Below are positions 18,619 through 42,948 of a stretch of DNA of 64,000 nt, piece after piece (within the stretch, counting starts at the first letter, position 1; every line of letters begins with the position of its first letter). The DNA comes from a virus (taxonomy: Duplodnaviria; Caudoviricetes). Under the pieces are notes generated by a model. The model was not told where the DNA came from, made no database searches, and was given only the letters and a program-made list of their open reading frames with translations. A program made the position numbers and the translations under genes. Location: positions 64,001 to 128,000 of IMG/VR virus record IMGVR_UViG_3300021400_001148; one strand, 5' to 3'.

Positions 18619-19128
18619 ATGGATATTTTGAAACAACATATTGGACACTACATTGACGCAGACAAACTGATTGCACTTATAGATGCAAAACTTGAAGATT
18701 TGGGATTGAGTGGTTCTGTTTGGGTTGGAAGAAGTGTTCTCCAAGATTTAAAAAATAATATAATTACTTCTCTCCAGCAGGAGATGCTGGAAACATCAAA
18801 TAATTTGGTAGATGTCGACGCAGTAAGGGATGATTTTATGACGGAAGTCTATCGTGTACTTGATGCTGACCCCACAAATGATAGAGCGAATGCAATAATT
18901 AACGCATTTGATTCTTTGCCGACAATCTCTCAGGAACAGCCGGAGGTGGATTTGGAGAAAATAGAAAAAGCATCATACAAAGTCTTTCCTGCCAAGAAAA
19001 AACTTGGCGTCGAAAAAATCAAATACCCCAATCGAGAAGATGAAAACTTTTCCAAACGAGAAATATGGAAAGATGGTGTTATATGGGCAATATACAGCCT
19101 GAACAGAAATGTAAGAAAGGAGGATTAA
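18619..19128 (+). CDS. family B modular protein
   Basis: YIDADKLIA..SLQQE..QEQPEVDLEK..NVRKED. Confidence 0.7.
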   Translation: MDILKQHIGHYIDADKLIALIDAKLEDLGLSGSVWVGRSVLQDLKNNIITSLQQEMLETSNNLVDVDAVRDDFMTEVYRVLDADPTNDRANAIINAFDSLPTISQEQPEVDLEKIEKASYKVFPAKKKLGVEKIKYPNREDENFSKREIWKDGVIWAIYSLNRNVRKED

Positions 19129-19322
19129 GGTATATGCAATGGAAAGAATTAAAATGGTATAAGGCAGATAAGGATTATTCTTTTTCCTTTGTTAGATGCC
19201 TTGTTATTGCTAAAAATGGAAATGTAGTAATAAGAAACAATGCTAAAAAAGGTGAGCACTATATTCCACTGCCAATCATAGAAGATTTACCAAAAGATTA
19301 ACGCAAGAAAGGAGGCAACCAA

Positions 19323-19535
19323 ATGAGTTGGTATTTGATTGTATTGTTGATTATATTCTACATAGTAATGTGGATTATTACAACTATTGCTTTTGCACGA
19401 TGGGCAAAAAGTTCTGATTCGGGATGGCTTATAATAGGAGCAATATGGCCTTTAACTTTTATATGTATTCCTTTAGTAGCAGTGATTCTGTTTGTTGACA
19501 AGATTGCCAATAAGTACGGTTATAAGGAGAAATAA
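19323..19535 (+). CDS. small membrane protein
   Basis: Two TM segments, IWPL motif; similar in type to 43551. Confidence 0.6.
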   Translation: MSWYLIVLLIIFYIVMWIITTIAFARWAKSSDSGWLIIGAIWPLTFICIPLVAVILFVDKIANKYGYKEK

Positions 19536-19537
19536 CT

Positions 19538-19732
19538 ATGCAAGTTAAAATAGATTTTTCAGAAGATTGCAAAGCAAACAATTATAGTCTAGAGAGACCT
19601 GGCACCTATGCAATTTATGTTCGTAAAAACTGCTTCCATAAATGGAAACAAATACAATCATATGCAGATGTTTCACTTGCACTCTATGAGTTTCGCAAAC
19701 TAAAAGAGGCGGCACATGCGATTGAGCTCTAA
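19538..19732 (+). CDS. hypothetical protein
   Basis: 64-aa packed ORF. Confidence 0.5.
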   Translation: MQVKIDFSEDCKANNYSLERPGTYAIYVRKNCFHKWKQIQSYADVSLALYEFRKLKEAAHAIEL

Positions 19733-19752
19733 CGTAAGAAAGGAAAAATAAC

Positions 19753-19968
19753 ATGAAAGCACCAGAAAAAGTTTATATTGATGACTTGGCTGTTGTCAAT
19801 GATTGTGCCACGAAAATATCGTTAAAACAACTTCCAAACTTTTCCGAATATATCCGCAAGGACGCTCTGCTGGAGTGGGCGAAAACGGAGAGGGCAAAGT
19901 GCTCCAATGAAACTCATCCGTATGCACAATTTATGAATGTCGTTATTAACAAACTCAACTCAAAGTAA
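19753..19968 (+). CDS. family H protein (paralog of 43118)
   Basis: P.K.Y...EYIRKDALL.WAK. Confidence 0.65.
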   Translation: MKAPEKVYIDDLAVVNDCATKISLKQLPNFSEYIRKDALLEWAKTERAKCSNETHPYAQFMNVVINKLNSK

Positions 19969-19969
19969 T

Positions 19970-20758
19970 ATGACAAAAATTAAAATCCAAATAAAGAACC
20001 GCTGGACGGGTTCTATCCTGTTCGAGTATGAGAAGGAGAACAACACTATTAAGGATACCATTACAGAAGCGGTTAAGAGATGTGCAAACCTCCGTGATGC
20101 AGACCTTCGTTATGCAAACCTCAGTGGTGCAATTCTCAATGGTGTAGACCTCATGAGTGCAGACCTCTGTTATTCAGACCTCAGTGGTGCAAAACTCAGG
20201 TATTCAGACCTCAGTTACACAGACCTCCGTGGCGCAGACCTCAGTGATGCAGACATCAGTAGCACACATCTCCGTAGCGCATTCCTCCGTGGTGCAAAAC
20301 TCCGTGGCACAGACCTTAATGATGCAGACCTCGTTGGTGCAGACCTCGTTGGCGCAGACCTCAGTGACACAGACCTCCGTACCACAGACATCCGTGGTGC
20401 AAAACTCCGTGGCGTAAAAGGAAGCCCCTATGCCCCCCTCGCCTGCCCCTCTGATGGAGCATTCGTAGGCTGGAAGAAAGCCGAGGACAAGCTAATTAAG
20501 TTGCTCATTCCCGAAGATGCAAAGCGAAGCTCTGCAACCACGCAGAAGTGTCGCTGCAGTAAAGCACAGGTGCTTGAAATCACCGACCTTGACGGAACAA
20601 ACCCTGTGACTGAACTGAAACATGATGCTTATGACCATATCACTACTTACAAGGTTGGAGAAATAGTGTTCCCAGATAGTTTCGATGAGAATAGATGGAA
20701 TGAGTGTTCTCATGGAATTCACTTCTTTATCAACAAACAAGACGCAATAGACTATTAA
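19970..20758 (+). CDS. pentapeptide-repeat protein with C-terminal DUF5758-like domain
   Basis: A(D/N)Lxx repeats followed by CPSDGAFVGWKK...KCRCSKA...NECSHGIHFF. Confidence 0.85.
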   Translation: MTKIKIQIKNRWTGSILFEYEKENNTIKDTITEAVKRCANLRDADLRYANLSGAILNGVDLMSADLCYSDLSGAKLRYSDLSYTDLRGADLSDADISSTHLRSAFLRGAKLRGTDLNDADLVGADLVGADLSDTDLRTTDIRGAKLRGVKGSPYAPLACPSDGAFVGWKKAEDKLIKLLIPEDAKRSSATTQKCRCSKAQVLEITDLDGTNPVTELKHDAYDHITTYKVGEIVFPDSFDENRWNECSHGIHFFINKQDAIDY

Positions 20759-21159
20759 TGGTACACGCAAAAGAATTAATGCTTGGTGACTGGGTAAAGA
20801 AAGGAAATTTATTCGGTCGAGTGCTCGATATCGAGCAAAGGGAAAAATATGCCATTGTTGGCGTGGAGTTCGAGAGTGGGTATGATGTTTATGATGAAGA
20901 CGAATTAGACCCAGTTCCCCTCACACCCGAAATCTTGGAGAAAAACGGGTTTGGTTTCACCCGAAGCGACAATACGGATTCGGTGTGGAATGGTTGGTGG
21001 ATTTATAAGGGGCTTGAGTTGGCAACAGCATGTCTCGATAGAGAAGGGAATTGGCCTTGCTTCATTAACATATATGATTCAAACATAAAGTGTGAATATG
21101 TTCACCAACTCCAGCACGCATTAAAAATTGCTAAAATCGAAAAAGAAATTGAAATATGA
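20758..21159 (+). CDS. family E protein (paralog of 48730)
   Basis: EL..GDWV..P.PLTPEILEKNGF..YVH.LQ.AL...IEKEI. Confidence 0.7.
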   Translation: MVHAKELMLGDWVKKGNLFGRVLDIEQREKYAIVGVEFESGYDVYDEDELDPVPLTPEILEKNGFGFTRSDNTDSVWNGWWIYKGLELATACLDREGNWPCFINIYDSNIKCEYVHQLQHALKIAKIEKEIEI

Positions 21160-21800
21160 GAATACCTTTTGATATTAAGTACCGTCCGCAAATTGAAAGT
21201 AGAGAATATAAGGTAGAAACAAGAGATGGAAAGCCTACCAGAATTGTTTGTTGGGACATGGATAGCTACAACCCTATTGTTGCATTGGTAGCAAATTATC
21301 CAAACTATGATGGAAGCCTTAGTGAGCATATTTTTTCATATAGCATGGATGGACATTATAGTGCTACATGCTCCAGCGATGAAGACCTTTTTATTGTCAC
21401 GCCGGAGCCGGAAATGACGGCGTTTGAGAAAAAAGTTTACGCGTATTGCGATGGTAAAACCGTAGGCGAAGAACTAATAAAAAGAATTGCTAAAGAACTC
21501 CTTGACTATGCAAGAAAAGAACTTGAGCCAGAAGTATTAGAAAGACTTGAAGTTGCTTATAAGAATCAAGATGAGGTTGTTTATGAGAACGGGAAAAGAG
21601 ATGGCCAAGCCGAAGCCTTGAAGGACTTGCCGAGGTGGATGAAATGGGATACCAATAAAATATTTGATGATTCCAGATATGTTCTTATTCATACTACTGA
21701 TTTTAATATTTCGTCTGATATGCTCTTATACGACACTATTACAAAACGTGCAATTTTCGTTTCAGACCTTAAGAAACTTCCCGGTTTTAAGGAGGATTGA
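21156..21800 (+). CDS. family J protein
   Basis: RIVCWD..PIVAL..LKDLPRW..LKKLPG. Confidence 0.65.
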   Translation: MRIPFDIKYRPQIESREYKVETRDGKPTRIVCWDMDSYNPIVALVANYPNYDGSLSEHIFSYSMDGHYSATCSSDEDLFIVTPEPEMTAFEKKVYAYCDGKTVGEELIKRIAKELLDYARKELEPEVLERLEVAYKNQDEVVYENGKRDGQAEALKDLPRWMKWDTNKIFDDSRYVLIHTTDFNISSDMLLYDTITKRAIFVSDLKKLPGFKED

Positions 21801-22054
21801 ATATGCCAGCAATAGTAGGACATGATTATTCGTGGTGGGTTGATTACTCGTGGTCTTATGAGGTATTTGACGAGGAAAGCCATTCTTGGGTTTCAGAGCA
21901 TAGCTTTGAGGGTGAACGATTTGCCTGCCGGAAAAAAGACATCAAGAAAGAGGCGAAGGAACGAATTAAGGAGTGGGAACTTTGTGGAGTGCAATACAGA
22001 AATCTCAAAGTTCATATTGATGATTGCTATATGACAACCGCTTGCGAATGTTAA
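21797..22054 (+). CDS. hypothetical protein
   Basis: Packed ORF; true start may be the ATG at 21803. Confidence 0.55.
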   Translation: MNMPAIVGHDYSWWVDYSWSYEVFDEESHSWVSEHSFEGERFACRKKDIKKEAKERIKEWELCGVQYRNLKVHIDDCYMTTACEC

Positions 22055-22067
22055 AAGGAGGACAGCC

Positions 22068-22373
22068 ATGAGTAAAAGAGCAGAGGCTGCTGCCATGGAA
22101 GCCTATCCGCCAATATACACTACGGTCAAAAGGCATGCGAAAAGGGTTCAAAGTGAAAGAATAGATACACACCAGCCAGCGAGAGCTATATTTCAGCAGG
22201 GCTATGAGAAGGCCGAGAAAGACACGATAGAAAGAGCTGTTTCTTGGTTAATTAAAAATGCGGATTATTACATAGGCAGCATGGAGGTCAGTAGGTGCTT
22301 ACCAATTAAATATCATGTCTCATGCGCTTGCTGGGCTGACCTTAAAGCATTTATAGAGGAAGACAATGGATAG
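22068..22373 (+). CDS. hypothetical protein (related to 22366)
   Basis: RA..AA...YP...F.QGYE.A.KD. Confidence 0.6.
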   Translation: MSKRAEAAAMEAYPPIYTTVKRHAKRVQSERIDTHQPARAIFQQGYEKAEKDTIERAVSWLIKNADYYIGSMEVSRCLPIKYHVSCACWADLKAFIEEDNG

Positions 22374-22662
22374 AGCAGCAAAGGTAGCCTTAAAGATGTA
22401 CCCTCTCGACAAATTCGATGGAGAAATCGGTGATTCCATGAGAGCCGCGTGTTTCGTCGGTTATGCGCAAGCGATGTATGACCTTACACTGACTTGGGAG
22501 GATGTGAAGAATCTTGACCATTTGCTGCACGATGCCGACTTTGAAAACGGCAGGGCTGAGTCTTTGGGAAAGGAGATTCTCTTTGATGGTGATGAGGGAT
22601 TCTACGGAGAGGTTTTGAAACGCTTTAACGAACAGAGAAAGAAAGAATTAATTAATGGATAA
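22366..22662 (+). CDS. hypothetical protein
   Basis: RAA..A...YP...F.GY.QA..DL.LTWED. Confidence 0.6.
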   Translation: MDRAAKVALKMYPLDKFDGEIGDSMRAACFVGYAQAMYDLTLTWEDVKNLDHLLHDADFENGRAESLGKEILFDGDEGFYGEVLKRFNEQRKKELING

Positions 22663-22865
22663 GAAACAAAAACATACTGATAGAGAATTGTTGGAAATGT
22701 TAGTTGAAGCCATTGATTATTCGTTTCTAAAAACCAATGGTGAATACGACAAAGCACTGACATATCCAGTCATTGACAAAGTGCGATACATTAAAAATCA
22801 AATTGGGGCTGAAAAGTTTTTCGGAGTTTAAAACTTCTTTTGCCACGAACGAAAATTAAATTACT

Positions 22866-23177
22866 ATGCTTATACCAATTTTTATCCATATAAAAGAAAA
22901 ATCTGACGAGGAGATTCGCGAGGAAATGGCTCGTGAAGCTAAATGGCGTAAAATGATAGAGGAGGATGATGCACGGCGGCGTGCTCGTGAGCGTGAAGAA
23001 AAGGAGAAAGAAGAATACGAAAAAGAAAAGAGAAAAAGAGTAATCAGCGAAGAATACGAACAACTCAGGTATAGGGATGAGTGGGAAACACTCATCTTAC
23101 CTGAAGGGTGGAGCATCTTTGGGCAAAGATGTTTCAGTCCCATATCATTGTTTTATGAGGGTGAAATGCCCGTTTAA
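22866..23177 (+). CDS. charged coiled-coil hypothetical protein
   Basis: E/R/K-rich centre. Confidence 0.55.
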   Translation: MLIPIFIHIKEKSDEEIREEMAREAKWRKMIEEDDARRRAREREEKEKEEYEKEKRKRVISEEYEQLRYRDEWETLILPEGWSIFGQRCFSPISLFYEGEMPV

Positions 23178-23188
23178 AAATTTTCGCC

Positions 23189-23587
23189 ATGGACAAGAAA
23201 GTAAAAAACTTTGTTGAAGAATACAACAAGAGAATAGATTGGAATAAGGACATCCGCGACAGCCTTAATCTTGATTTCATTCCAATTCACACGGATATAA
23301 TCAAGAGTTACCTCACCACAAAAAAATTGGATAAGGAAGAATATGATTTGGAAAATGCCTTGTTTTATACCTATGATGATGGGTTAATGGAACTGCAGGT
23401 TTTCAACAAAACATATTATGATAGACATTACTTTTGGGTTCGGCCATATGAAACGGACGCTGAGAATTCATACAAAACGGAGACGATTGAATATATTAAG
23501 GGGGCAATTAACAAACGTTTGGAAGAGTTGCAACCATTCATTGCTGAAGAAAAGGAATTGTTAAAAATTAAAGAAAAGCTGTCATGA
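23189..23587 (+). CDS. hypothetical protein
   Basis: 132-aa ORF. Confidence 0.6.
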   Translation: MDKKVKNFVEEYNKRIDWNKDIRDSLNLDFIPIHTDIIKSYLTTKKLDKEEYDLENALFYTYDDGLMELQVFNKTYYDRHYFWVRPYETDAENSYKTETIEYIKGAINKRLEELQPFIAEEKELLKIKEKLS

Positions 23588-23841
23588 CAAAAGAAGAAAT
23601 GGTAAATGCTTACTACACAAATGGTGATGGTGGGCGAAATTATGAAGAAGCACAGAAACTAATCAAAGAAGCAATGGAGAATGGGGAACCATATGTCTAT
23701 CTCCCTGGCAAAAATGGTAGTAGGGGTGAGTTCATTTGGGCAGCAACAGAAGAAACGATTGCGAGGCTTCGTAAAGATGGCTTTGACATTGATAAAGTAT
23801 GGGACCCGTGGGAATATTGGTCGGTTGAATGGGGGTATTAG
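23584..23841 (+). CDS. hypothetical protein
   Basis: 85-aa ORF coupled to the upstream stop. Confidence 0.6.
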   Translation: MTKEEMVNAYYTNGDGGRNYEEAQKLIKEAMENGEPYVYLPGKNGSRGEFIWAATEETIARLRKDGFDIDKVWDPWEYWSVEWGY

Positions 23842-23843
23842 TT

Positions 23844-24305
23844 ATGACACTGGAAGAAAAACAACTGCTACTTAAAGACCTTTGTGCAAGGTTGCCGTAT
23901 GGAGTAATCGTTGACTACAAGGAAAATGAATTTGAGGTTCCACATTGGAAAATAACCACCATTTACCCAGAAACATTGAGTGGGTGGATTGGCTATGACA
24001 AGAAAGTCGGGGCAGGTTCTGAAAGCGGTAGCAGACCTTTTAACATTGGGGAAGTCAAACCATATCTTCGCCCAATGTCAAGTATGAGTGAAAAAGAAAA
24101 AGATGAACTTGCACTTATTGGAGATAAAGATTTTCAATCTGTTAGGGAATGGTATAATGCCGAATACATGAATGAAACTGGCACTCCTTGTCCAGTTACT
24201 TCCGGAAAAGTAGATTACTGTAATAAAAATCACCTTGACTATCGTGGTCTTATCACTATGGGCCTTGCTCTTGAAGCACCTAAGGGAATGTATAAAACTC
24301 AATAG
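23844..24305 (+). CDS. family C protein
   Basis: EEKQLLLKDLCARLPY..KPYLRPMSSM..DYRGLI.MGLALEAP.GMYK. Confidence 0.75.
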   Translation: MTLEEKQLLLKDLCARLPYGVIVDYKENEFEVPHWKITTIYPETLSGWIGYDKKVGAGSESGSRPFNIGEVKPYLRPMSSMSEKEKDELALIGDKDFQSVREWYNAEYMNETGTPCPVTSGKVDYCNKNHLDYRGLITMGLALEAPKGMYKTQ

Positions 24306-24308
24306 AAC

Positions 24309-24548
24309 ATGAAGAAATTTATTTTTATCACATTGATGGCTGCCGCCTTATGCTCATGCGATAATGTAGTTGAAAAAATGACTCCGGGAACTCCAGAGTC
24401 ATTGATTTCAGACACAAAATTAGTTGAGTTGACTTTTGAAGGATATTCACATCAGTTCGTCTACAATCACTCATATATTGGAGCCGGTGTATATGATGTT
24501 GAAATCGTGCATTGGCCAAGTTGTAAGTATTGCCAAGAGAATAAATAA
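24309..24548 (+). CDS. small lipoprotein
   Basis: MKKFIFITLMAAALCSC lipobox; C-terminal HWPSCKYC. Confidence 0.6.
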   Translation: MKKFIFITLMAAALCSCDNVVEKMTPGTPESLISDTKLVELTFEGYSHQFVYNHSYIGAGVYDVEIVHWPSCKYCQENK

Positions 24549-24974
24549 ATGATTGCAAAAGATTACATTAGTTTTGAGGCTGCCAAACTCTTGAAAGAGA
24601 AAGGGTTTGATTATCCTACAGAAACAGGCTACAATGAAGATGGACATACGATAGAAAGGGCTTGCAACATCGGCGAGCGTTCTATATACGGTGACGCTTA
24701 TAACTGGAACAAAGAGGAAATATATTACTCTCGTCCAACACTGTGGGAAGCGATGAGGTGGCTGAGGAGGGTTCGCAAACTGTACATTGAAATTCGTATT
24801 ATGAACTTTTCAATCTCTAAGAGTTATGATGTTCCGAAATATTACTGGATAGTCCTCGACGCCGAAAAAGTTAAATGGTTAGATGAATCTACGTGTTACA
24901 CGCCAAAAGGCTTTGACACTTTTGAAGAATCTTGTGAATCTGCCGTAAAGCATTGCCTTGAAAAACTGATTTAG
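24549..24974 (+). CDS. family D protein
   Basis: DY.SFE.AKLLKEKGFD..PTL..A..WLR..CE.A...CLE.LI. Confidence 0.75.
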   Translation: MIAKDYISFEAAKLLKEKGFDYPTETGYNEDGHTIERACNIGERSIYGDAYNWNKEEIYYSRPTLWEAMRWLRRVRKLYIEIRIMNFSISKSYDVPKYYWIVLDAEKVKWLDESTCYTPKGFDTFEESCESAVKHCLEKLI

Positions 24975-24977
24975 GAT

Positions 24978-25457
24978 ATGTACACAGAAAAAAACATAAA
25001 ACTCGCCCTGAACTATATGAAGGAGCAGGGAATATTGGAAGAGCGGGTTCCTCACTGTATGAAGTTGACACTGGCCGACTTCGTGAGAGAAGTACTTGAA
25101 TATGGGTGTTTCAGGGAAGACTGTCTGACAAATCCGGAAGTGTTGGTGCAGACTGTAAGGGATGTGGCAAGAACAATGTCCGAGAATCTGTTTGAGGATT
25201 ATAAAAGCGACGAGACCCTCGAATGGGGAAAATTCGATAAAGACCTTTTCAGGCGGATTAGATGTTGGCTCGATTCCTCTTTTCCCACATATAAGGATTC
25301 AATAGTCTGCGGGCAGTCCGATGCTTCCGCCTTGCACCCCATCACCGGGGGATATGTAAAAATCAAAGAGTCAGACCGGAACGTCAAAGTACCCGAAAAA
25401 GGGTATATTTTTGCTGGCGGAACACAAACCATAATGCCCGACGATTCGTTTCAGTAG
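24978..25457 (+). CDS. hypothetical protein
   Basis: 159-aa ORF. Confidence 0.6.
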   Translation: MYTEKNIKLALNYMKEQGILEERVPHCMKLTLADFVREVLEYGCFREDCLTNPEVLVQTVRDVARTMSENLFEDYKSDETLEWGKFDKDLFRRIRCWLDSSFPTYKDSIVCGQSDASALHPITGGYVKIKESDRNVKVPEKGYIFAGGTQTIMPDDSFQ

Positions 25458-25497
25458 AAGATACCTGTTGATTACCCCAAAAGCGACGGAAAACTTT

Positions 25498-25540
25498 TGC
25501 GCCGAGAGTAAATGACTCTCGGACTTTTTTTGTATATTTG
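25498..25540 (+). promoter_or_regulatory. bipartite promoter
   Basis: TGCGCC at 25498, TATATTTG at 25533. Confidence 0.75.
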
Positions 25541-27738: not shown

Positions 27739-28191
27739 AAAATAGGCATTTATAAATAAAGAATTGCTAATACGGAAACAGATATGAAACAGAATTATTT
27801 TACCCCAAGAGATAGGGGACATGTAGAAGAAATCAATATGTCTCTCTCACAATTAGAAAGAGACTATAAACTTGATTTGAGTTCTGAAAAGGAATGGCTT
27901 GATGGACTAAATGAAAGGTTCGGTAAGCCTTTGACAAGGGTAACAGAATGAAGTGCGGTAATAATTACCGCAAATAGAAACTAAAATAAGAAGATATGTC
28001 AAAGATTGATTGTAGAAACCGCTTAAAAAACGGCTGTTGTATTTTAACGGGTGGTGAATGCACACACGAAACATGTACTATCAAAGAGCCTGAATTAGAT
28101 ATTTCAGAGGAAGCCGACGTCTATCTTGAATTGCACCGAATTATGAGTGAAGAAGGCGGGGATTAAGCAGCCATTTCCATGAGGGAAAAAT

Positions 28192-29067
28192 ATGGAGCCA
28201 AATAGCAAAAATTATCATAATATGGAACTAGATAGCAAATATGAAGAAGCCCTTGAGAGGGCAAGAAAGGGGATGCCGATAGACGAGGTGTTCCCCGAAC
28301 TCAGGGAGAGTGAGGATGAGGAGATAAGGAAAGCGTTAGTAAATTTTTTTAAGAATACTCATGATTGGGTAAATCTTAAATATGATGGAAGCCAAATAGT
28401 TGCCTACCTCGAAAAGCAGAAAGAGCAGAAATCTTTGAACATTAGTGCTGCATCGGAATGGCTGAGGAAGCATGTTTGTCGCTATATGAATTCGGAGTAT
28501 AACGAGTTCCACAAAAGTGTAGAATACGATGGCAGTATTGACGAAGAAAGGCTTATCAATGATTTTGAGGGGGCAATGCAGAAAGAGCAGAAGCCCGCAG
28601 AATGGAGCGAGGAGGATGAAAGGTTATTGAATATCATTATAGACATTCTTGACAAAGAAGAGCATAATGGACATTTAATGCGTAACGACCTTAAGGCTTG
28701 CATCAAATTACTCAAATCCCTCCATCCCCAGCCAAGCCCACAGTTGAGCACAAATCATACCGTGTGGCACAATGCGAGCGAAGAAAAGCCTACAAAATTA
28801 CCCATAATTCATATATGGTATCACGGAAACAGAGTTAATGCGGTTACTCACGAAGATACTTGTCTTCAAGCAGAACTTGATGACATAAACTTCCAGCCGG
28901 ATGATAAATGGGCTTACGTTGAAGATTTGCTGAATGTTCAGCCTCATTGGAAGCCGAGCGAGGAGCAGATGAAAGCGCTGAAAGATGTGATTAATAGGGC
29001 ACTTTTGACTTGCAGACAACAGGTCCCATTAGAATCACTTTACAACGACCTTCAAAAACTACTTTAG
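28192..29067 (+). CDS. family F modular protein
   Basis: FPELRESEDE.IRK, EWSEEDE, WKPSEEQM, SLYNDLQKL. Confidence 0.7.
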   Translation: MEPNSKNYHNMELDSKYEEALERARKGMPIDEVFPELRESEDEEIRKALVNFFKNTHDWVNLKYDGSQIVAYLEKQKEQKSLNISAASEWLRKHVCRYMNSEYNEFHKSVEYDGSIDEERLINDFEGAMQKEQKPAEWSEEDERLLNIIIDILDKEEHNGHLMRNDLKACIKLLKSLHPQPSPQLSTNHTVWHNASEEKPTKLPIIHIWYHGNRVNAVTHEDTCLQAELDDINFQPDDKWAYVEDLLNVQPHWKPSEEQMKALKDVINRALLTCRQQVPLESLYNDLQKLL

Positions 29068-29070
29068 CCT

Positions 29071-29385
29071 ATGAAATACATTGACGCAGACAAACTGATT
29101 GCCGAGATAGAAAGGCTCGACAAGGTAAGCAAAGAAACAATGAGGTCCCCATCTGGTGTAGGTCTTGAATTTGCATTTGGGATTTCAGCAGGATATGCAG
29201 ACGTATTAAAACTCATCGCCTCTCTCCAGCAGGAGCAGCCGGAGGTGGATTTGGAGAAAGAAATTGAACAATACACAATCGGCTTTATTGGAGAACTTAG
29301 AAACTATAAAGATTGGACTCCAAGAATTGCTCGGTTCGCCCGCTACTTCTACGAACTTGGATTTAACGCAAGAAAGGAGGAATAG
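29071..29385 (+). CDS. family B protein
   Basis: MKYIDADKLIAEIER..SLQQEQPEVDLEKE..FYELGFNARKEE. Confidence 0.75.
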   Translation: MKYIDADKLIAEIERLDKVSKETMRSPSGVGLEFAFGISAGYADVLKLIASLQQEQPEVDLEKEIEQYTIGFIGELRNYKDWTPRIARFARYFYELGFNARKEE

Positions 29386-29387
29386 AT

Positions 29388-29804
29388 ATGCCATACGAAA
29401 TCAATGGAGTCAGTATTTGTATAGAGCGAGAATATTTGCGGGATGGACAGTTTCAGGACTTAATGTCTTATTATGATGACGATGGTACTTGTTTCTCAGA
29501 CTTTGACATAACAAACGAAGATATATATGAAGTCGAGAATCCGTGTTTTCTTTCTGACATTTTTGTTTTCCAAAAGAAGCGCTTTAATCATTTTATTTAT
29601 GGAGATATTGAAACTATTTGTTTCATAAAACTAAATGACAGGAATAAGATAGAAGAAATTGGGTTTGACTTTTCTTCAAGATTCCATTTAGAAAAAGATA
29701 AAACATACAAAAAAGCAACGGCACTACACAAAATTCCATTTCTTTTAATTGGTGATGAAATGTGGCTTAATGCAAGAAAGAAGAAAGTAAATGAAATACA
29801 TTAA
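29388..29804 (+). CDS. hypothetical protein ending in an NARK-type junction
   Basis: Body unrelated to family B, but C-terminal LNARKK. Confidence 0.6.
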   Translation: MPYEINGVSICIEREYLRDGQFQDLMSYYDDDGTCFSDFDITNEDIYEVENPCFLSDIFVFQKKRFNHFIYGDIETICFIKLNDRNKIEEIGFDFSSRFHLEKDKTYKKATALHKIPFLLIGDEMWLNARKKKVNEIH

Positions 29805-30090
29805 CACAGATAGACTGATTGCTGAGATAGAAAGACGAAAGAAAGAGAGAAGAGAATTTGTACAAAAGCGCGGGCTTTCGTCTCTTGGTAATGCTGCTCA
29901 AATTAGGGCAAACGAAGATGAGGAGATTCTTTCCCTCATCGTATCTCTCCAGAAGGAGCAGCCGGAGGTGGGTTTAGAGGAAGAAGTTAAGAGGTGGAAG
30001 GATAAACACGGAGTGGTTGGTATGGATGATTTGTGGCTCAAATTTGCATGTCACTTCTACGAACTTGGCCTTAACGCAAGAAAGAAATGA
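29791..30090 (+). CDS. family B protein
   Basis: MKYINTDRLIAEIERRKKE..EQPEV..FYELGLNARK. Confidence 0.75.
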   Translation: MKYINTDRLIAEIERRKKERREFVQKRGLSSLGNAAQIRANEDEEILSLIVSLQKEQPEVGLEEEVKRWKDKHGVVGMDDLWLKFACHFYELGLNARKK

Positions 30091-30250
30091 GTAACTATTA
30101 TTGTTTGTATTGTGAGTATTACAAGCCGACACAATGCGGTTCAGAAAATACCGAGCCGGAGGGTATATGTTGCAATCCGGACACGGCAATAGACCGTGTA
30201 TATGGTCATGAATGTTGTGAATACTATGACGCAAGAAAAGAGGAAAGTAA

Positions 30251-30967
30251 ATGAAATACATTGATGCAGATAAACTGAAAGTTAAGATAAAGGGGCTACA
30301 ATGCGAGCAAGGGTTTGATACCGGAGAGGCGGAAAGTGCCTATCAACTTGCTACAAAAGACATTCTTGTTTTCATTGACTCTCTCCAGCAGGAGCAGCCC
30401 GCAGAGTCTGACGTGATAAAAGGTGGAGACTTTATTAGCGATGGGAAAAGAGTCTTTCTTGTTCTTGCAAATGTGGAAGAAAGAAATCTCGGAGAAACAG
30501 GCTCAACCTTCTGCGAAGGTCATATTCTCGGCGTTGATGGTGTTGTGTATTGTAATGGGGACAACTTTATAAAGTTTAAGCGAGCAACCTCGAATGAAAG
30601 AGCAAAGTTTATTCATGATTTGAAGGTCGGGGTTGAACTTAAAGAGCAGCCGGCAGAGTGGAGCAAGGAAGATGAGATATTCTTGGGGGTCTGCAAGAAT
30701 GCCCTCAGTAAATATGAGCGTTCTGATAAGTGGGATGCCAGCATCATTTCAGAGTGGCTTGAAAATCGCCTCAAATCCTTCCGTCCCATGCCAAAGCAGG
30801 AGCAGCCGGAGGTGGATTTGGGGAAGTTTGATAAGGATGTGACTAAAATTTGGGGTAGATGTGCAGCCGAACCAAATGATTCAATCGCTTGTCTTCATAT
30901 TGAAACTTTTAATGAAGTTGCTCGCCATTTCTACGAACTTGGTTTTAATACAAGAAAGGGGGATTGA
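30251..30967 (+). CDS. family B/F chimera
   Basis: Family B termini enclose an F-type EWSKEDE...WLENRLKS.RP module. Confidence 0.7.
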   Translation: MKYIDADKLKVKIKGLQCEQGFDTGEAESAYQLATKDILVFIDSLQQEQPAESDVIKGGDFISDGKRVFLVLANVEERNLGETGSTFCEGHILGVDGVVYCNGDNFIKFKRATSNERAKFIHDLKVGVELKEQPAEWSKEDEIFLGVCKNALSKYERSDKWDASIISEWLENRLKSFRPMPKQEQPEVDLGKFDKDVTKIWGRCAAEPNDSIACLHIETFNEVARHFYELGFNTRKGD

Positions 30968-30968
30968 T

Positions 30969-31145
30969 ATGGCACATTGGTTTAAATGCCCTCATTGTGG
31001 TAGGGGCGTTTGTGATGAAATGGGCGAAAATCTCGTGGATTACGAAGAGGGTCTGTATAGATGTACCGAATGTGGTGGTATTATATCCACTGATGATGAT
31101 ACGATAGACTATGAAGAATATGCAAAAATTGAAAATCTAATATAG
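30969..31145 (+). CDS. small zinc-ribbon protein
   Basis: CPHC...CTEC. Confidence 0.6.
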   Translation: MAHWFKCPHCGRGVCDEMGENLVDYEEGLYRCTECGGIISTDDDTIDYEEYAKIENLI

Positions 31146-31177
31146 TTATAATGCAAGAATGGCAAATTCTAAAAACA

Positions 31178-31201
31178 AAGGGGTGGTTAATTCCACCCCT
31201 T
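31178..31201. terminator. hairpin between convergent transcription units
   Basis: AAGGGGTGG-TTAATT-CCACCCCTT with A/T-rich flanks. Confidence 0.7.
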
Positions 31202-31206
31202 ATTCG

Positions 31207-31497
31207 TTAAGGTATAAACAGCCATACCAAAGCCCCCACCACATTGTATAAGAAACAAACGTACCATTTGATGGGCCAGTTAATATCAACGTCTTTTGTA
31301 TGGCTCTTCCATAAGCCTAAAAGATATAAGGCATTGTGGGTTGCCCATTCGAATTTCATTGATATTCTTTTACGATGCTGAAAAACAAGGCACTCAGGAT
31401 GCTCTTTCTCAACGTCATCAAGTATCGCATCAAAGTTTTTCTTGGAAACCCCGTACGAGTCGTCAATGTGAATGTTGTTGGGTGTTACTGTTATCAT
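31207..31497 (-). CDS. hypothetical protein with C-terminal TM segment
   Basis: EWATHN motif, hydrophobic tail. Confidence 0.6.
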   Translation of the reverse strand: MITVTPNNIHIDDSYGVSKKNFDAILDDVEKEHPECLVFQHRKRISMKFEWATHNALYLLGLWKSHTKDVDINWPIKWYVCFLYNVVGALVWLFIP

Positions 31498-36588: not shown

Positions 36589-36599
36589 AACTTTTCATT

Positions 36600-39500
36600 C
36601 TATTCAATCGCAATTATTGTTGAATACTTATTCGAGGGGTCCTCCCCTTCATAGTCACCCACACCTTCACCTTCTATCCACCTTACGACAAATGGACTAT
36701 ATGGTGTATTGATGTTATGTCCATCACATTCAAGAGTATGTGGATACAGGTCTTGGTATGTCATGTCCATTGGTAATAAACCGCCGTACATGTTTGAGCT
36801 ACCATCTGCGTAAAATTTGTATTCCACTCCCTCATATTCCACTGTTACTCCAACATCTTCCCAATATTGGTCGGGGTTATCATTATCTCTCACTGCTTGT
36901 ATGTAGTTATCCATTGTATCAACTCCGGCGTTATGCATTGACATGTACAAGCCATACTCATGGAAATCATCAAAATATATTTTTGCTATCGCAGAAGAAT
37001 GTTCTTGAATTGGTGTGCTTGAGTATTCCAATGTTTTAACGCATATTAACCTATAATCTACGTCAAGGTTATCGGTATATATATCACCCATCTCGTCCGG
37101 ACTACCATTAAATACAACAGCAAAAGGACAATAATGGTTATTCACGTTTGCTTCCATAGAGTTATTGTACAATGTTGTGTAGTCAAGATTTTTCGGTGCC
37201 AAGGCGTATATACTGTTTCGATTTTCGCCAGCGTTAAATCCCACCCACACGCGATATTCCGCGCCTTCATATTCCATAACATTGCAAGTCGGCATAAATA
37301 TATTCGTTCCCACATGGTCGGCGGCACTCATATTGTTGCAAACATCAGAGATATATTCCTGAATATTATTATAGCCAGATTCCTCTGCATATGTATTGCC
37401 ACCTTGTCCATCTTCAAAGTCATCAATATATAACGCGGCTATGTATCCACCACTAGCATCACCTTCGGTTCCTAAAATATAATCTAATTCAGACAATGAT
37501 AAACTTCTTATTTCACTTATATCGGCAAAGATTTTTTGCAAACTGTTATTAGAAGAAGGATTTGTCCCATTGTATCCACCAACCCCATAGAGGTAAGCGT
37601 TACCGTTCTGCATTATTTCAAAGGCGTTTTTGGTATCCGCCGTAGACGTACCAATACCAATAGAATGCTGAGTATTTCCTGAGTGACCGTAATCGAGTGA
37701 AAAAGTGTTGGATTTATTGAAATATCCCTCTGCATGCTCAAAAAGGTTCCGTGTTGTTGTGTTGGCACCTTCCGCATGAGAATAACCTCCGTTTGCTGTT
37801 GTACGATAACCTTCCGCATGAGAACAAGTGGCACTTGCTTTTGTGCGGTCACCTTCTGCATGAGAGGTATACCCGCTCGCCCTTGTGATATTTCCTTCGG
37901 CATGGGAAAAATTACCACTTGCAATTGTGGCGACTCCTTCCGCATGAGAATTCTCACCACTTGCGATTGCGCCATTACCTTCTGCATGAGAGGTATACGC
38001 GCTCGCCCTTGTGTTATTTCCTTCGGCATGGGAAAAATTACCACTTGCGATTGCGCAATAACCTTCTGCATGAGAGGTTGTTCCAGATGCAGTGGTGTCT
38101 TGTCCTTCTGCGTGAGAATACCAACCGAGTGCCTTGACAGACAATCCTTCCGCATGGGAATAATTACCGGCAGCATAATTGGCACTATCTGTGTCCATGG
38201 ATTCAGTATAATATTCAACCCCGGTGCTTAATGTCGCGCCACTCGCATTGAATAATACACCAAATATGTAAGTTTCGTCAACTTGTACTTCGGAGTCACA
38301 AAATACTGCATCAGTTATGACAGCAATTGGATGCTCGTGGTCACTATTTAAGTATACCATTGAACCGTCACGGGGACTATTCCAATCTCCCCAAAAATAA
38401 TATTCGAAAGACCTACCATAATGTTGCTGGATTGCCTGTTTTTCGTTATCGGTAAGTTCGGTTATTTGTGATTCAATGGTACTAATTTCACCGGAGCCTT
38501 CAGCGACCGCAAATTCACCCGACGCGATTGAATTACTTCGGCGCAATACAGCACTATGTTCACCCGTTCCCGCTTCAAATACATTCCCAGTATCCAAATT
38601 TCCAGAACCGAGGATTGAAACCCCATTAACAGTCTTGATATTTGTTCCACTGACGAGAGTATCTTGCTTCCCACTCACGACATTTTGCAATGTATTTGAG
38701 GTGCTTGCTGTTGCATTGGTACCATCATAACCACCGACGCCATATAAGTAAGTGTCACCATTCTGCATTATTTCAAAGGCATTCTTAGTATCAGCAGTTG
38801 ATGCACCAATGCCTATCGAATGTTGCGTGTTACCTGAATCGCCGTAGGTGTTAGAGGATTTATTGGATTTGTTGTAGCGTCCCTCTGCGTGTTCAGCCTC
38901 GTTTTGGGCTGTCGCATGTTCCCCTTCTGCATGAGAGCCGTATCCGGATGCCGTTGTCCCGACTCCTTCTGCATGAGAGCCGTATCCGGATGCCGTTGTC
39001 CCGACTCCTTCTGCATGAGAGCAGTATCCGAATGCCTTTGTCTCGTCTCCTTCTGCATGAGAGCATGTGTTGGATGCTGTCGTGTAACTACCTTCCGCAT
39101 GAGAGGATACCCCAGATGCTGTTGTGTGGTCACCTTCTGCATGAGAACCTGACCCGGATGCTGTCGCATGTTCCCCTTCTGCATGAGAGCCTGACCCGGA
39201 TGCTGTTGTTGCATTGCCTTCCGCATGCGATGCTCTACCAGTGGCGAAAGTTTTTTCACCTTCCGTATGTGATGCGATTGCTTGTGCTAGTGTTGCATTT
39301 CCTTCTGCATGAGCATAAGCACCAACTTTGGTATATGTTCCACCACTTAATGTGTTCTGGCTATCATTTCCACCAGTCTTTGTGTTAAATCCTTCGGTGT
39401 GTGAATCCTGCCCAGTAGCTTGTGTATTTTCACCTTCTGCATGTGCAGCCTGATTTAAGCTCATGGAACCTTGTCCTTCTGCGTGAGAGTAAAAGGCAAC

Positions 39501-42305
39501 AGCTTGTGTGTTATATCCTTCTGCGTGACCTGCTCTTCCTTTAACAAGCGTATACCATCCCTCCGCATGTCCTTGCATAGCTTGAACTTTAACCTGGTAG
39601 CCCTCGGCGTGTCCTTCTTCTTCGAGAACCTCATTTGAAAGTCCTTCCACATGCGAATAATTCCCGGAAGCTACATTTTGTTTTCCTTCAACATGAACAC
39701 CCTTTACGACAATACCATTCTTGGATATTTTATTACGGCAACCCTCCACATGAGAATAAGGGGCTTCTATAATAACGTTTCCTTGACCCTCAACATGTGA
39801 GCCCGTAGACTTTGTGTTGTAAAGTGAACCATCTGATGATGGTGGAACTTTTGTCGTATCACTGCCAAGATAATTGAGAGCACCTTCTATATGTGCATAA
39901 TTGCTTTCAACTGTATTTGTATATCCTTCTGCATGCGATGCGGTTCCAGAAGCCTCGGTTGATTGTCCTTCGGCGTGTGATGCAATTCCTGATGCTGTCG
40001 TTCCCGAACCTTCAGCAACTGAACTAACTCCACTTGCTACCGCACCACTTCCTTTCTGCTGAACACTATTTTCGCCGGAACCCGATTCCCAAAGAGAATC
40101 ATTTTCTAAAGATTTGATAACCTCCTGAACTGTTTTAGATGGTTTTGTTTCATCGGTTTTTAAATTGTTTCCTTCATAATCCCCAATACCATATAGATAG
40201 GCATCGCCATTCTGCATGATTTCGAAAGCATTTTTTCTATTAGCATCATCTCTACCTATACCTACTGAATGTTGCGTATTTCCTGAAGAGCCATAAATGT
40301 CTGAATGCTTGTTGGATATATTGTAGATTCCCTCTGCATGCTCAGTCTCGTTTTGGGCTGTTGTATTATACCCTTCTGTATGAGAGTTGTATCCGGATGC
40401 GGTGGTGTTTTCTCCTTCTGCATGAGAGGTTGTTCCGGATGCTGTTGTATTAAACCCTTCCGCATGAGAGTGGTATCCGGATGCGGTGGTGTTTTCTCCT
40501 TCTGCATGAGAGGTTGTTCCGGATGCTGTTGTGTGGTCACCTTCTGCATGAGAGTGGTATCCGGATGCCGTTGTATTATACCCTTCTGCATGAGAATCAT
40601 CTCCAGTTGCATTTGTTGTATTACCTTCAGCATGAGAGTTGTATCCGGATGCGGTGGTGGAACTACCTTCTGCATGAGAGTGGTATCCGGATGCCGTTGT
40701 ATTATACCCTTCTGCATGAGAATCATCTCCAGTTGCATTTGTTGTATTACCTTCAGCATGACTTGCACTACCTAACGCAGTAGTACCAATGCCTTCACTA
40801 TGTGATGCGTAACCTTTTGAGCCTGAATTTGATGAATAATAATTTACTTGAGAAATTATAAATTCAACATTCGCAGTCTTTTTATTCCCAATTCCTAATT
40901 TTTCAGATAATTGAAACCATTTTGAACCACCAGTGTATACAGCTGTTACTGTTATTCCTCTATCCGAAACATCAACCCCATTTAATTTGTATAGCATACA
41001 GCCTACTGAATAGACATCCGCAGCTGATGTACCTTCAGTTGTTTGATACAATCTAGTTTCCGTTGCAGCGGCTTTTATTGTGTCACTAATTGGTTGACCT
41101 GTTACTATAATTTTATAGCCAATCCCTTCAGCATGAGAATACCTACCTTCTGCTCTGGTATAACCTCCCTCTGCGTGCGAACCAACTCCCTGCGCAACAG
41201 TTTCAACTCCTTCAGAGTGAGATGATGCACCCTTTGCAGAATTGCTAAATCTACATTTTACATTAACGAATTCGTCCCCTTCTGTATCATTTGGAATATA
41301 ATCAGATAGATTAAGGTAGGTAGATATGCCATCTTCAGCTTCAATATTCTCAATATAAATAATTTTATCAAAATCTACAGTAGATGCACCAATGTTCAAA
41401 TGGCACAAATCGCCTGCATTTTGAACAAGAATGTATCTAGCAGATTCTCTATCAATTCGACGTAATGTTACCAATACTTCAGATTCGTGTTCATAGCCTC
41501 CCTCTTTATGAGAGCCATATCCTGTAGCAGAACCGCCTCTACCTTCGGAATGTGCAGCAGTTCCTACTGAGTAAGTACTATACCCTTCAGCATGTGCACC
41601 ATTACCATTAACTTTAGTTTGAAAACCTTCTGAATGAGCACCCTCTCCTTTCTCTACTTTGGTATAATATCCTTCAGAATGAGAAGAATTACCGGCGGCG
41701 ATTGCCCCAATACCCTCCGAGTGACTTCCGGAACCTTCTGACTTTGTTCCAAGACCTTCCGCATGAGCCCCACGGCCTGATGCCTCTGTATAAATAATAG
41801 TCTGTTCTCCTGTTTCTTTCCAATTACTATCATCAGTTACTGCTATAGAACCTTCTGCATGAGCTCCTTGACCTGATGCGTTTGTACCAATACCTTCGGC
41901 ATGTGATTTTTCACCACTTGCTTGAGTCTGTTGAGTATCTATGGTTCTTTCATCATCTTTGCCTTGGTGATATAATATCGAAGTACCACCATTCTCTGCA
42001 TGTGAATCTAAGCCTGATGCTATTGTTTCATGACCTTCGGCAACACTATTATCTCCACCAGCAACTGCCCCGGTTCCTTTTTGCTGAACACTATTTTCAC
42101 CAGAGCCTTTTTCCCAAATATCCTCTCGGGGCCCAAAAGTAACTATTTCATCACTGTCATTTTTAATAAACAAACCCTCCGTTCCTTCGTGGTAGTTCAG
42201 CGCTATTTCACCGTACTCTAAATCTATTGGTTGGGGAATTTTTCCTTCCCCTTCTGAAAGTGTTTCGTTGGAGCGTTTTAGCAATACAGTATATTTTTTT
42301 GCCAT
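36600..42305 (-). CDS. ~1900-aa tail fibre/adhesin with SHAEG (YadA-head-like) repeats
   Basis: N-terminal LKRS..P...L.YGEIALNY anchor. Blocks of 14-aa SHAEG..T.ASG repeats are closed three times by TQHS.GIG...KNAFEIMQNG.AYLYG. Alternative start at 42323. Confidence 0.8.
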   Translation of the reverse strand: MAKKYTVLLKRSNETLSEGEGKIPQPIDLEYGEIALNYHEGTEGLFIKNDSDEIVTFGPREDIWEKGSGENSVQQKGTGAVAGGDNSVAEGHETIASGLDSHAENGGTSILYHQGKDDERTIDTQQTQASGEKSHAEGIGTNASGQGAHAEGSIAVTDDSNWKETGEQTIIYTEASGRGAHAEGLGTKSEGSGSHSEGIGAIAAGNSSHSEGYYTKVEKGEGAHSEGFQTKVNGNGAHAEGYSTYSVGTAAHSEGRGGSATGYGSHKEGGYEHESEVLVTLRRIDRESARYILVQNAGDLCHLNIGASTVDFDKIIYIENIEAEDGISTYLNLSDYIPNDTEGDEFVNVKCRFSNSAKGASSHSEGVETVAQGVGSHAEGGYTRAEGRYSHAEGIGYKIIVTGQPISDTIKAAATETRLYQTTEGTSAADVYSVGCMLYKLNGVDVSDRGITVTAVYTGGSKWFQLSEKLGIGNKKTANVEFIISQVNYYSSNSGSKGYASHSEGIGTTALGSASHAEGNTTNATGDDSHAEGYNTTASGYHSHAEGSSTTASGYNSHAEGNTTNATGDDSHAEGYNTTASGYHSHAEGDHTTASGTTSHAEGENTTASGYHSHAEGFNTTASGTTSHAEGENTTASGYNSHTEGYNTTAQNETEHAEGIYNISNKHSDIYGSSGNTQHSVGIGRDDANRKNAFEIMQNGDAYLYGIGDYEGNNLKTDETKPSKTVQEVIKSLENDSLWESGSGENSVQQKGSGAVASGVSSVAEGSGTTASGIASHAEGQSTEASGTASHAEGYTNTVESNYAHIEGALNYLGSDTTKVPPSSDGSLYNTKSTGSHVEGQGNVIIEAPYSHVEGCRNKISKNGIVVKGVHVEGKQNVASGNYSHVEGLSNEVLEEEGHAEGYQVKVQAMQGHAEGWYTLVKGRAGHAEGYNTQAVAFYSHAEGQGSMSLNQAAHAEGENTQATGQDSHTEGFNTKTGGNDSQNTLSGGTYTKVGAYAHAEGNATLAQAIASHTEGEKTFATGRASHAEGNATTASGSGSHAEGEHATASGSGSHAEGDHTTASGVSSHAEGSYTTASNTCSHAEGDETKAFGYCSHAEGVGTTASGYGSHAEGVGTTASGYGSHAEGEHATAQNEAEHAEGRYNKSNKSSNTYGDSGNTQHSIGIGASTADTKNAFEIMQNGDTYLYGVGGYDGTNATASTSNTLQNVVSGKQDTLVSGTNIKTVNGVSILGSGNLDTGNVFEAGTGEHSAVLRRSNSIASGEFAVAEGSGEISTIESQITELTDNEKQAIQQHYGRSFEYYFWGDWNSPRDGSMVYLNSDHEHPIAVITDAVFCDSEVQVDETYIFGVLFNASGATLSTGVEYYTESMDTDSANYAAGNYSHAEGLSVKALGWYSHAEGQDTTASGTTSHAEGYCAIASGNFSHAEGNNTRASAYTSHAEGNGAIASGENSHAEGVATIASGNFSHAEGNITRASGYTSHAEGDRTKASATCSHAEGYRTTANGGYSHAEGANTTTRNLFEHAEGYFNKSNTFSLDYGHSGNTQHSIGIGTSTADTKNAFEIMQNGNAYLYGVGGYNGTNPSSNNSLQKIFADISEIRSLSLSELDYILGTEGDASGGYIAALYIDDFEDGQGGNTYAEESGYNNIQEYISDVCNNMSAADHVGTNIFMPTCNVMEYEGAEYRVWVGFNAGENRNSIYALAPKNLDYTTLYNNSMEANVNNHYCPFAVVFNGSPDEMGDIYTDNLDVDYRLICVKTLEYSSTPIQEHSSAIAKIYFDDFHEYGLYMSMHNAGVDTMDNYIQAVRDNDNPDQYWEDVGVTVEYEGVEYKFYADGSSNMYGGLLPMDMTYQDLYPHTLECDGHNINTPYSPFVVRWIEGEGVGDYEGEDPSNKYSTIIAIE

Positions 42306-42360
42306 AGAATAAATGATTTTCATATAAATATCTGCTGAAAAAAAATTCTCGCATCTTCAT

Positions 42361-42505
42361 TTGACATACTCCCACGAATGAATTCGTGGGATTCTTAAGG
42401 TTTTACAAACACCGCGGCCCGATTTATTTTGTCCCCTAGTTTGTCGATGCCCCGACGAAGTATATTTCTGGCGGCATTCAGGTCCCTGCCGTGGGACTTC
42501 CCAGA
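42361..42505 (-). mobile_element. IS200/IS605 remnant: tnpB 3' end plus right end/omegaRNA scaffold
   Basis: Minus strand encodes HGRDLNAARNILRRGI (TnpB RuvC-III-like), then the hairpin AATCCCACGAAT-TC-ATTCGTGGGAGT, ending in TCAA. Confidence 0.75.
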
Positions 42506-42534
42506 CAATAACTAATCCACCGGCTTCAGAAAGA

Positions 42535-42577
42535 TGCGCCAGAATCCGGGAGGAAATTGAAATTATTTGTATATTTG
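42535..42577 (+). promoter_or_regulatory. bipartite promoter
   Basis: TGCGCC at 42535, TATATTTG at 42570. Confidence 0.75.
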
Positions 42578-42639
42578 CAACACGGGACTAAAGTAGTGGG
42601 TTTTCTCCCGTAATTATCATAAAGAAAGGAGGAAAATAA

Positions 42640-42948
42640 ATGAAGTACATTAACACAGATAGACTGATTGCTGAGATAGAAAGGCGAAAGAAAGAGATTT
42701 TTGAAATTGGCGATGACACATTTGAGAACAGATGGGTTTGTGGCTCACTTGATGGTATCAAAGCATTTGCCATATCTCTCCAGCAGGAGCAGCCGGAGGT
42801 GGATTTCGAGAAGGAATTAAAAAACGAGAGGACTAAATTATTGGATGCGTTTGGTCCAATGAACGGAGAGCAATGTCTTGCTATTAGGAATTTTGCTCGT
42901 CACTTTTACGAACTTGTTAAAACCGCAAGAAAGGAGGAAAGTAAATGA
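42640..42948 (+). CDS. family B protein
   Basis: First 19 aa identical to 29791; SLQQEQPEVDFEKE..FYEL..ARKEE. Confidence 0.75.
   Translation: MKYINTDRLIAEIERRKKEIFEIGDDTFENRWVCGSLDGIKAFAISLQQEQPEVDFEKELKNERTKLLDAFGPMNGEQCLAIRNFARHFYELVKTARKEESK

Follow-up and report, generated by a model that had tools for sequence, protein, structure and literature searches.

A recurrent gene junction with a probable extended Shine-Dalgarno core at the ends of small genes in large phages of likely rumen Bacteroidales

Short repeats at the joints between phage genes have been described before. The start-associated sequences (SAS) of Cluster K mycobacteriophages are asymmetric repeats located 3-8 bp before the starts of a subset of non-structural genes, and their function is unknown (PMC3203893). 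The promoter-early stem-loop (PeSL) cassettes of T4-type phages place a repeated expression signal between small non-essential genes (PMC2839356). Here we describe a 16-nucleotide (nt) motif, AAYGCAAGAAAGGAGG, that recurs at gene ends in a 64,000-nt stretch of DNA (hereafter the window), which corresponds to bases 64001-128000 of a complete, terminally repeated 354,809-bp phage genome (Caudoviricetes; IMG/VR record IMGVR_UViG_3300021400_001148). We consider it likely, on the whole, that the motif is a composite gene junction whose core, (A)AGAAAGGAGG, is an extended Shine-Dalgarno (SD) sequence placed 6-8 nt before the next ATG.

The likeness to SAS lies in position and logic only. Both are short asymmetric repeats that stand in a single orientation before the starts of genes of different families, both combine an SD core with conserved positions that are unable to pair with 16S rRNA, both are conserved across related phages, and both sometimes contain the stop codon of the upstream gene. 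However, the SAS consensus is 13 bp long, G/C-flanked and found in another host phylum and phage group; SAS have not been described as encoding a protein tail or as mosaic breakpoints (PMC3203893), and the host lineage of the present motif is reported not to use SD sequences. In PeSL cassettes, close relatives differ by gene insertions, deletions and replacements that arise through recombination from copy to copy, with no dedicated recombinase, a likeness to the present motif, and mini-circles have been demonstrated for these cassettes (PMC2839356). PeSLs are nevertheless transcription units, made of a strong early promoter and a terminator hairpin, whereas the motif is a translation start/stop junction within polycistronic runs and has no hairpin. 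The junction differs from both SAS and PeSLs in that it also encodes a protein tail, and in that the lineage whose phages carry it makes no use of SD sequences.

Bacteroidia are a textbook case of ribosomes that hide the anti-Shine-Dalgarno tail, and a very long SD is known to be exploited by no more than one or a few of their genes. Their ribosomes sequester the 16S tail and ignore SD sequences for initiation, with the exception of rpsU, the gene for bS21, whose extended SD of 9-13 bp is read by ribosomes without bS21 (PMC9976891). In a survey, Bacteroidetes were the one group that used SD sequences neither for initiation nor to reinitiate where the genes of a pair overlap (PMC6728339). The present junction shares with rpsU of Bacteroidia at least 9 contiguous bp and a predicted energy below -13 kcal/mol in an SD-avoiding genome (PMC9976891), but rpsU is one host gene under autoregulation, whereas the junctions form a family in phages and mostly lie within a few bases of an upstream stop. 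With termination-reinitiation pairs it shares a stop that overlaps or lies near the next start and an SD in the 3' end of the upstream gene (PMC6728339); as the surveyed Bacteroidetes lack SD use at reinitiation, the phage junctions would be an exception. Like the attC/attI arrays of integrons, the region holds promoter-less single genes bracketed by a repeat in one orientation, but it has no integrase, imperfect inverted repeat or folded single-strand site, and its repeat consists of coding and ribosome-site sequence. The main interest of the motif is this candidate extended SD in an SD-blind setting.

Scanning the window with the 16-mer at up to three mismatches returned nine sites, at 19108, 19300, 19731, 29365, 29769, 30073, 30228, 30947 and 42922, all on the plus strand and all at gene ends. 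Shuffled sequences gave 1.27 ± 1.17 sites, and none of 100 shuffles reached nine; every gene-end site listed in a first-pass annotation of the window was thus recovered. Throughout the 354,809-bp genome, plus-strand copies at up to two mismatches are confined to the window region. A start codon lies a few bases downstream of every window copy. As had been proposed, three copies continue into the next start: a 29-nt extended junction occurs without mismatch at 42925 and with one at 30231 (0 expected), and a variant shorter by 1 nt occurs at 29772. The 16-mer is purine-rich and asymmetric, without dyad symmetry, inverted copy or attC-like hairpin, and its window copies sit within tightly packed or overlapping gene runs in which no hairpin is visible in sequence. 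Five copies form the last codons of the genes B1 to B5, members of a protein family that we call family B, in agreement with the NARKEE-type tail reported for them at first pass. The nine copies and two related sites are as follows.

19108-19123, plus strand: copy 1, last codons of B1 (NVRKED); putative ribosome site for a 55-aa gene at 19134-19301.
19300-19315, plus strand: copy 2, exact 16-mer, non-coding; -16.3 kcal/mol.
19731-19746, plus strand: copy 3, non-coding and degenerate, with 3 mismatches and a weakened core.
29365-29380, plus strand: copy 4, exact; tail of B2 (FNARKEE) and putative ribosome site for a 138-aa gene at 29388-29804.
29769-29784, plus strand: copy 5, in-frame tail of the non-B 138-aa gene; precedes the ATG of B3 (29791).
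30073-30088, plus strand: copy 6, tail of B3 (NARKK), with a truncated core.
30228-30243, plus strand: copy 7, in-frame tail of a Cys-rich gene (DARKEESK); 29-nt junction into the start of B4 (30251).
30947-30962, plus strand: copy 8, tail of B4 (NTRKGD); before the ATG of a zinc-ribbon-like 58-aa gene at 30969-31145.
42922-42937, plus strand: copy 9, tail of B5 (TARKEESK); exact 29-nt junction into a non-B gene at 42945-43115.
42622-42639, plus strand: leader copy, purine core and the same spacer as putative leader ribosome site of B5; -16.3 kcal/mol.
12670-12686, plus strand: decayed junction after a family-B-like gene at 12150-12671; ~10 bases can still be recognised at its start, but the purine core has been lost by deletion.

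The anatomy of these sites is regular. In coding copies the stop codon lies between the core and the ATG or overlaps the latter as ATGA, and in non-coding copies it lies at the first two bases of the motif. Accordingly, the TAA of gene 19134-19301 overlaps the first two bases of copy 2, which stands 7 nt upstream of the ATG of a membrane-protein gene (19323-19535), and the TAA of gene 19538-19732 overlaps those of copy 3, before the ATG of gene 19753-19968. These two sites bear out the claim that the motif follows or overlaps the stops of unrelated genes, whereas a third site named with them, near 30230, is the in-frame tail of the Cys-rich gene. They also support frame independence, being non-coding; by contrast, copies at 29769 and 30228 both read in the family-B tail frame and are therefore not frame-shifted, contrary to the heading under which the motif was first reported. 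Copy 5 does end the unrelated gene that starts at 29388, as its in-frame tail. Because this copy is a variant 1 nt shorter, the 138-aa gene reads 14 nt into B3. At copy 6, an ATGA overlaps the start of the Cys-rich 55-aa gene (30087-30254), and the same form is found in a related locus (L009). The junctions orthologous to the decayed site in L118 and L153 have the full motif.

The leader copy has no open reading frame (ORF) upstream and lacks the first five bases of the motif. In the same leader (window 42560-42640), a Bacteroides-type -7 box (TATATTTG) is seen ~55 nt upstream of B5, and a 6-bp stem could form between promoter and core copy. At the other end of B5, the first three codons of gene 42945-43115 (MKY) are those of family B, and only these and the junction are common to both. 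The beginning of this gene (42945-42953) suggests a crossover that fell just within the start of what was once a B gene.

The pattern extends to related loci. An exact scan of IMG/VR with the 16-mer gave 97 matches, mostly unrelated conserved sequences or chance, of which only a subset are true junctions; loci were therefore chosen through family B, which yielded 51 IMG/VR loci or, with the window, 52. At up to two mismatches these contain 51 distinct copies, all on the coding strand (0/51 on the other). Family-B tails account for 25 copies and in-frame tails of other genes for 14, from at least six families that include an 88-aa membrane protein, the 135/138-aa family and the Cys-rich family; a further nine are non-coding, with the upstream stop overlapping the motif start, and three have no nearby ORF end (two in intergenic start regions, one that looks like chance). 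The genes flanking the copies span many families on both sides. The same frame is read in 39/51 copies, and 48/51 lie at gene ends and almost none inside genes, so the motif is not equally frequent within genes. Its spacing is fixed: the next ATG begins 6-8 nt past the motif in 45/51 copies.

Of the nine stop-overlapping and three ORF-less copies, 11-12 of the 12 retain the purine core, whereas no more than 8-10 retain bases 3-5. The proposal that conservation acts at the DNA or RNA level, and not on the peptide only, is thereby upheld for the purine core; it extends less to the first five bases, which the Asn-Ala codons of family B chiefly maintain and which drift where the motif is non-coding. 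Since bases 3-5 drift, RKEE persists and the leader copy lacks the first five bases, the constrained unit is the purine core at a fixed distance from the start. The first motif bases are Asn-Ala codons of the family-B tail that have been carried along by descent.

The potential of the core for pairing is equally plain. AGAAAGGAGG forms 10 contiguous bp with the 3' tail of 16S rRNA, and its exact complement ends six Prevotella-family 16S genes, which bears out the Shine-Dalgarno-like core noted in the first-pass annotation. The junction falls within the published definition of an extended SD (at least 9 consecutive bp, energy below -13 kcal/mol). Across the 448 start regions of the phage genome, 5-mer SD-like words occur in 11%, compared with 9% inside genes. 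Weak sites are rarer before starts in the phage, a figure that does not refer to the host (71 start regions vs 95 mock regions at -6 kcal/mol), whereas very strong sites are in excess (12 vs 3 at -12 kcal/mol and 4 vs 0 at -14 kcal/mol), and the four strongest start regions, all at -16.3 kcal/mol, are copies of the motif. This energy pattern is that described for Bacteroidia. Judging from sequence, the core would act through the 16S rRNA tail, and the layout of the coding copies suits termination-reinitiation. The host is probably a Bacteroidales bacterium: among genome assemblies, family B occurs only on 8 contigs of rumen Bacteroidales/Prevotella-type metagenome-assembled genomes (MAGs).

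Comparison of the loci revealed mosaic breakpoints at the motif. In L134 an 88-aa gene abuts an 84-aa gene via one junction, whereas in L145 a 127-aa gene lies between them, bracketed by two junction copies; at the right-hand copy of L145, homology to L134 sets in with the first motif base, and what lies upstream of it is unrelated. The unit made of a B tail and the Cys-rich gene lies upstream of the unit made of B2 and the 135-aa gene in L009, but downstream of it in the window, and the high-scoring segment pairs (HSPs) between the two loci, at 88.5% and 82% identity, break off within the junction or within the opening codons of the B gene that follows. Between L111 and the window, a 96% match is confined to the stretch from the B2 mid linker to the junction, after which the genes differ. 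Likewise, around the membrane-protein gene the window begins to resemble L134 at 19298, where the motif starts, and the genes upstream differ. For a count, we took HSPs between different loci that reached 200 nt in length and 78% in identity and compared their endpoints in the junction zone with 500 random trials. Of 169 endpoints, 24 fell in the junction zone, where random placement gave 2.6 ± 1.6 (at most 9 in any of the 500 trials), an enrichment of about nine times, so that breakpoints do coincide with the motif; motif-bearing gene ends make up 45/665 gene ends.

The enzymes of a dedicated system are missing. Searches of the complete genome found no tyrosine recombinase (PF00589; control positive in 14/14 genomes), no serine recombinase (PF00239) and no ERF, and a RecA/UvsX-like ORF is present. 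With no recombinase, and with a motif that lacks both symmetry and inverted copies, the evidence gives no support to an integron-like system; the more economical reading, and the one that fits better, is that short shared sequences recombine with each other. Of the earlier suggestion that the motif is a cassette boundary, gain, loss and reordering at the motif therefore stand, and insertion by a dedicated system does not (no tyrosine or serine recombinase, no dyad, no inverted copy). The initial observation is confirmed and its interpretation is partly supported.

Taken together, the motif is more plausibly a composite gene junction than a recombinase site, and we rather favour a shared translation-start module that is moved by recombination. 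The junction unit probably arose in tandem family-B arrays and is now common to neighbouring genes of at least six other families. Because the junction is near-identical DNA among otherwise unrelated neighbours, whole genes could be shuffled between copies: general homologous or short-homology recombination, the pathway that we infer, may insert, delete and reorder whole genes, with an outcome that would resemble a cassette array.

Several observations weigh against this model. The enrichment of endpoints partly reflects similarity islands that end at gene ends, and the loci were chosen for carrying family B. Crossovers are also found in other family-B islands (the linker and the HFYELG codons), and the motif is thus not a unique recombination site. 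Synonymous conservation is seen in all conserved islands of family B and not in the tail alone. A translational role is unproven and, because Bacteroidia are reported to be SD-blind (PMC9976891, PMC6728339), unexpected in this host. The evidence for the host is itself limited to the 8 MAG contigs with family B, SD avoidance and a host-like bS21. Finally, because the homologues of the 138-aa protein keep the Trp-Leu/Ile start of the tail and most of them its NxRKEE part, the peptide may have a role of its own.

A more far-reaching version of the junction model can be offered only tentatively. In SD-blind Bacteroidales phages, the junctions might form a private translation channel, wherein a set of small accessory genes led by a 10-bp extended SD near an upstream stop would be translated only by ribosomes with a free 16S tail, either 70S ribosomes that reinitiate on terminating or ribosomes with too little bS21, a protein that the phage also encodes; the same module would serve as a portable exchange joint. 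The phage bS21 gene lies ~4 kb past the window end (G000:C1:132061-132213, minus strand, 63 aa). Its product aligns colinearly with Prevotella-family bS21 and retains both the C-terminal region and Tyr54, by which the 16S tail is held; a tail-freeing bS21 variant is therefore not supported. The start region of the gene is A-rich and without an SD, and bS21 was found in only 1/5 other large phages that carry family B. The host-like character of the phage protein adds to the case for a Bacteroidales host.

It is unlikely, in our view, that the purine motif is the RNA target of a factor other than 16S rRNA, for instance a phage translational repressor, an SD-cleaving endoribonuclease or a CU-rich phage small RNA, that co-regulates the accessory genes. 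RegB of phage T4 is an SD-cleaving endoribonuclease, and confinement of the motif to a subset of small accessory genes, in a genome otherwise without SD sites, would suit such a factor. The reported failure of the likely host's ribosomes to read SD sequences also speaks for it (PMC9976891). However, a RegB-family search returned no match, although its positive control was silent too and the search was in effect uncontrolled, and an SD predicts just this distance from the ATG and a core exactly complementary to the last 10 nt of 16S rRNA. As for a small RNA, a GOLLD-like RNA match (Rfam RF02032, E = 1e-14, below the gathering score and cut at its 5' end) lies beside a tRNA at G000:C1:353200-353660 (L178). 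It is followed, near the genome end, by a hairpin with a 22-nt CU-rich loop complementary to the junction core, which would favour this explanation. This sole hairpin is not conserved in five related large phages and folds no better than shuffles (z = -1.6), and it was rejected as an anti-SD-like small RNA.

The next alternative concerns the protein encoded by the motif. By its predicted structure, family B appears to be a large unnamed family of small four-helix proteins from phages of rumen Bacteroidales. The members in the window and the genes bracketed by junction copies are listed below.

18619-19128, plus strand: B1, family B, 169 aa, divergent.
29071-29385, plus strand: B2, family B, 104 aa.
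29388-29804, plus strand: 138-aa gene, non-B, bracketed by copies 4 and 5.
29791-30090, plus strand: B3, family B, 99 aa.
30087-30254, plus strand: Cys-rich 55-aa gene, non-B, bracketed by copies 6 and 7.
30251-30967, plus strand: B4, family B, 238 aa, with extra modules.
42640-42948, plus strand: B5, family B, 102 aa.

B2 has more than 1000 metagenome homologues, none of them named, and its closest relative is an identical protein on one further contig. Pfam contains no family for family B or its neighbours, and no GenBank phage gave a blastn match to window 28000-31300. The alignment of family B is conserved at the N-terminus, in a mid linker and at the C-terminus (...HFYELGLNARKEE). Read in frame, the motif is the conserved C-terminus ...LNARKEE, its first five bases being the Asn-Ala codons, so its presence inside family B is partly accounted for by protein conservation. 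The codons of the tail are near-invariant, with AGA in 18/18, GCA in 18/18 and AAC in 17/18 sequences against background frequencies of 0.29, 0.37 and 0.38, and some third positions in family B vary freely. Because every conserved island of the family shows synonymous conservation, it does not single out the tail, and we dropped it as specific proof of RNA-level selection there.

The tail could be a functional C-terminal peptide, such as a binding or targeting tag, whose non-coding copies are decayed remnants, but we regard this as improbable. In its favour, 39/51 copies share one frame, and the tail is conserved in many family-B homologues. In the 138-aa family, all 19 homologues start the tail with Trp-Leu/Ile; most keep the NxRKEE part, in which the residue after Asn varies (A/T/V/I/L) and RKEE persists. 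The AlphaFold2 model of B2 (four helices, mean predicted local distance difference test score, pLDDT, 78) makes the tail the end of the last helix, which also speaks for a tag, but this end is of low confidence and the last four residues score only 55. Moreover, the purine core is no less well kept in the nine post-stop and two intergenic copies than in the coding ones, no ORF that could encode a tag lies upstream of the leader copy at 42622, the distance to the ATG is fixed in 45/51 copies, and some family-B members end before both Glu codons yet keep the DNA.

The remaining conserved islands of family B deserve a description of their own. Synonymous sites are also conserved in the mid linker (SLQQEQPEVDLEKE) at window 29218-29262, and again near 18770, 29940, 30375, 30795 and 42780. 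Within this linker, GGAGGTG matches the 16S tail over 7 nt and precedes GTG and TTG codons that are in frame. Other paralogous families of small genes, in window 43748-49606 and in L110, L134, L148, L150 and L152, show the same patchwork of short DNA-conserved islands; one of them begins MTQEEKQLLLKDLCARLPY..., and another holds ...DYVSFE.AKLLKEKGF.... Among the exact IMG/VR matches to the 16-mer, those in L025, L030, L037, L048, L059, L060 and ~15 more lie right after a stop in another widespread conserved sequence (next bases CGTGACATCAG...), and a second group has the 16-mer inside a short ORF; neither group is related to family B.

That the motif is an ordinary strong ribosome-binding site of an SD-using host, repeated through paralogy and chance, is very improbable. 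AGGAGG-type sites are common in many phages, and a 16-mer pair in 64 kb is not very improbable alone; against this stand the low share of start regions with any SD-like word (~11% of 448, against 9% inside genes), the depletion of weak SD sites before starts, the confinement of family B among genomes to Bacteroidales MAG contigs, and the recurrence of the motif before and after unrelated genes in many phage contigs. Least credible of all, and largely refuted, is an integron-like site-specific cassette system with the motif as its attachment site: single genes are bracketed by direct copies and units are permuted between relatives, but the complete, terminally repeated genome encodes neither a tyrosine nor a serine recombinase, the motif is asymmetric, inverted in 0/51 copies and without an attC-like hairpin, and exchange points also lie in other conserved islands.

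On the model of a composite junction, large rumen phages of one clade, whose genomes otherwise avoid SD sites, carry a 10-bp SD at many of their gene junctions. These junctions allow testing whether the hidden 16S tail is usable in reinitiation or during phage infection. Additionally, a translation signal that neighbouring genes share, and that partly encodes them, can be a linker for gene shuffling in the accessory regions of phages, and the junction would be the translational counterpart of the transcriptional PeSL cassettes of T4-type phages.

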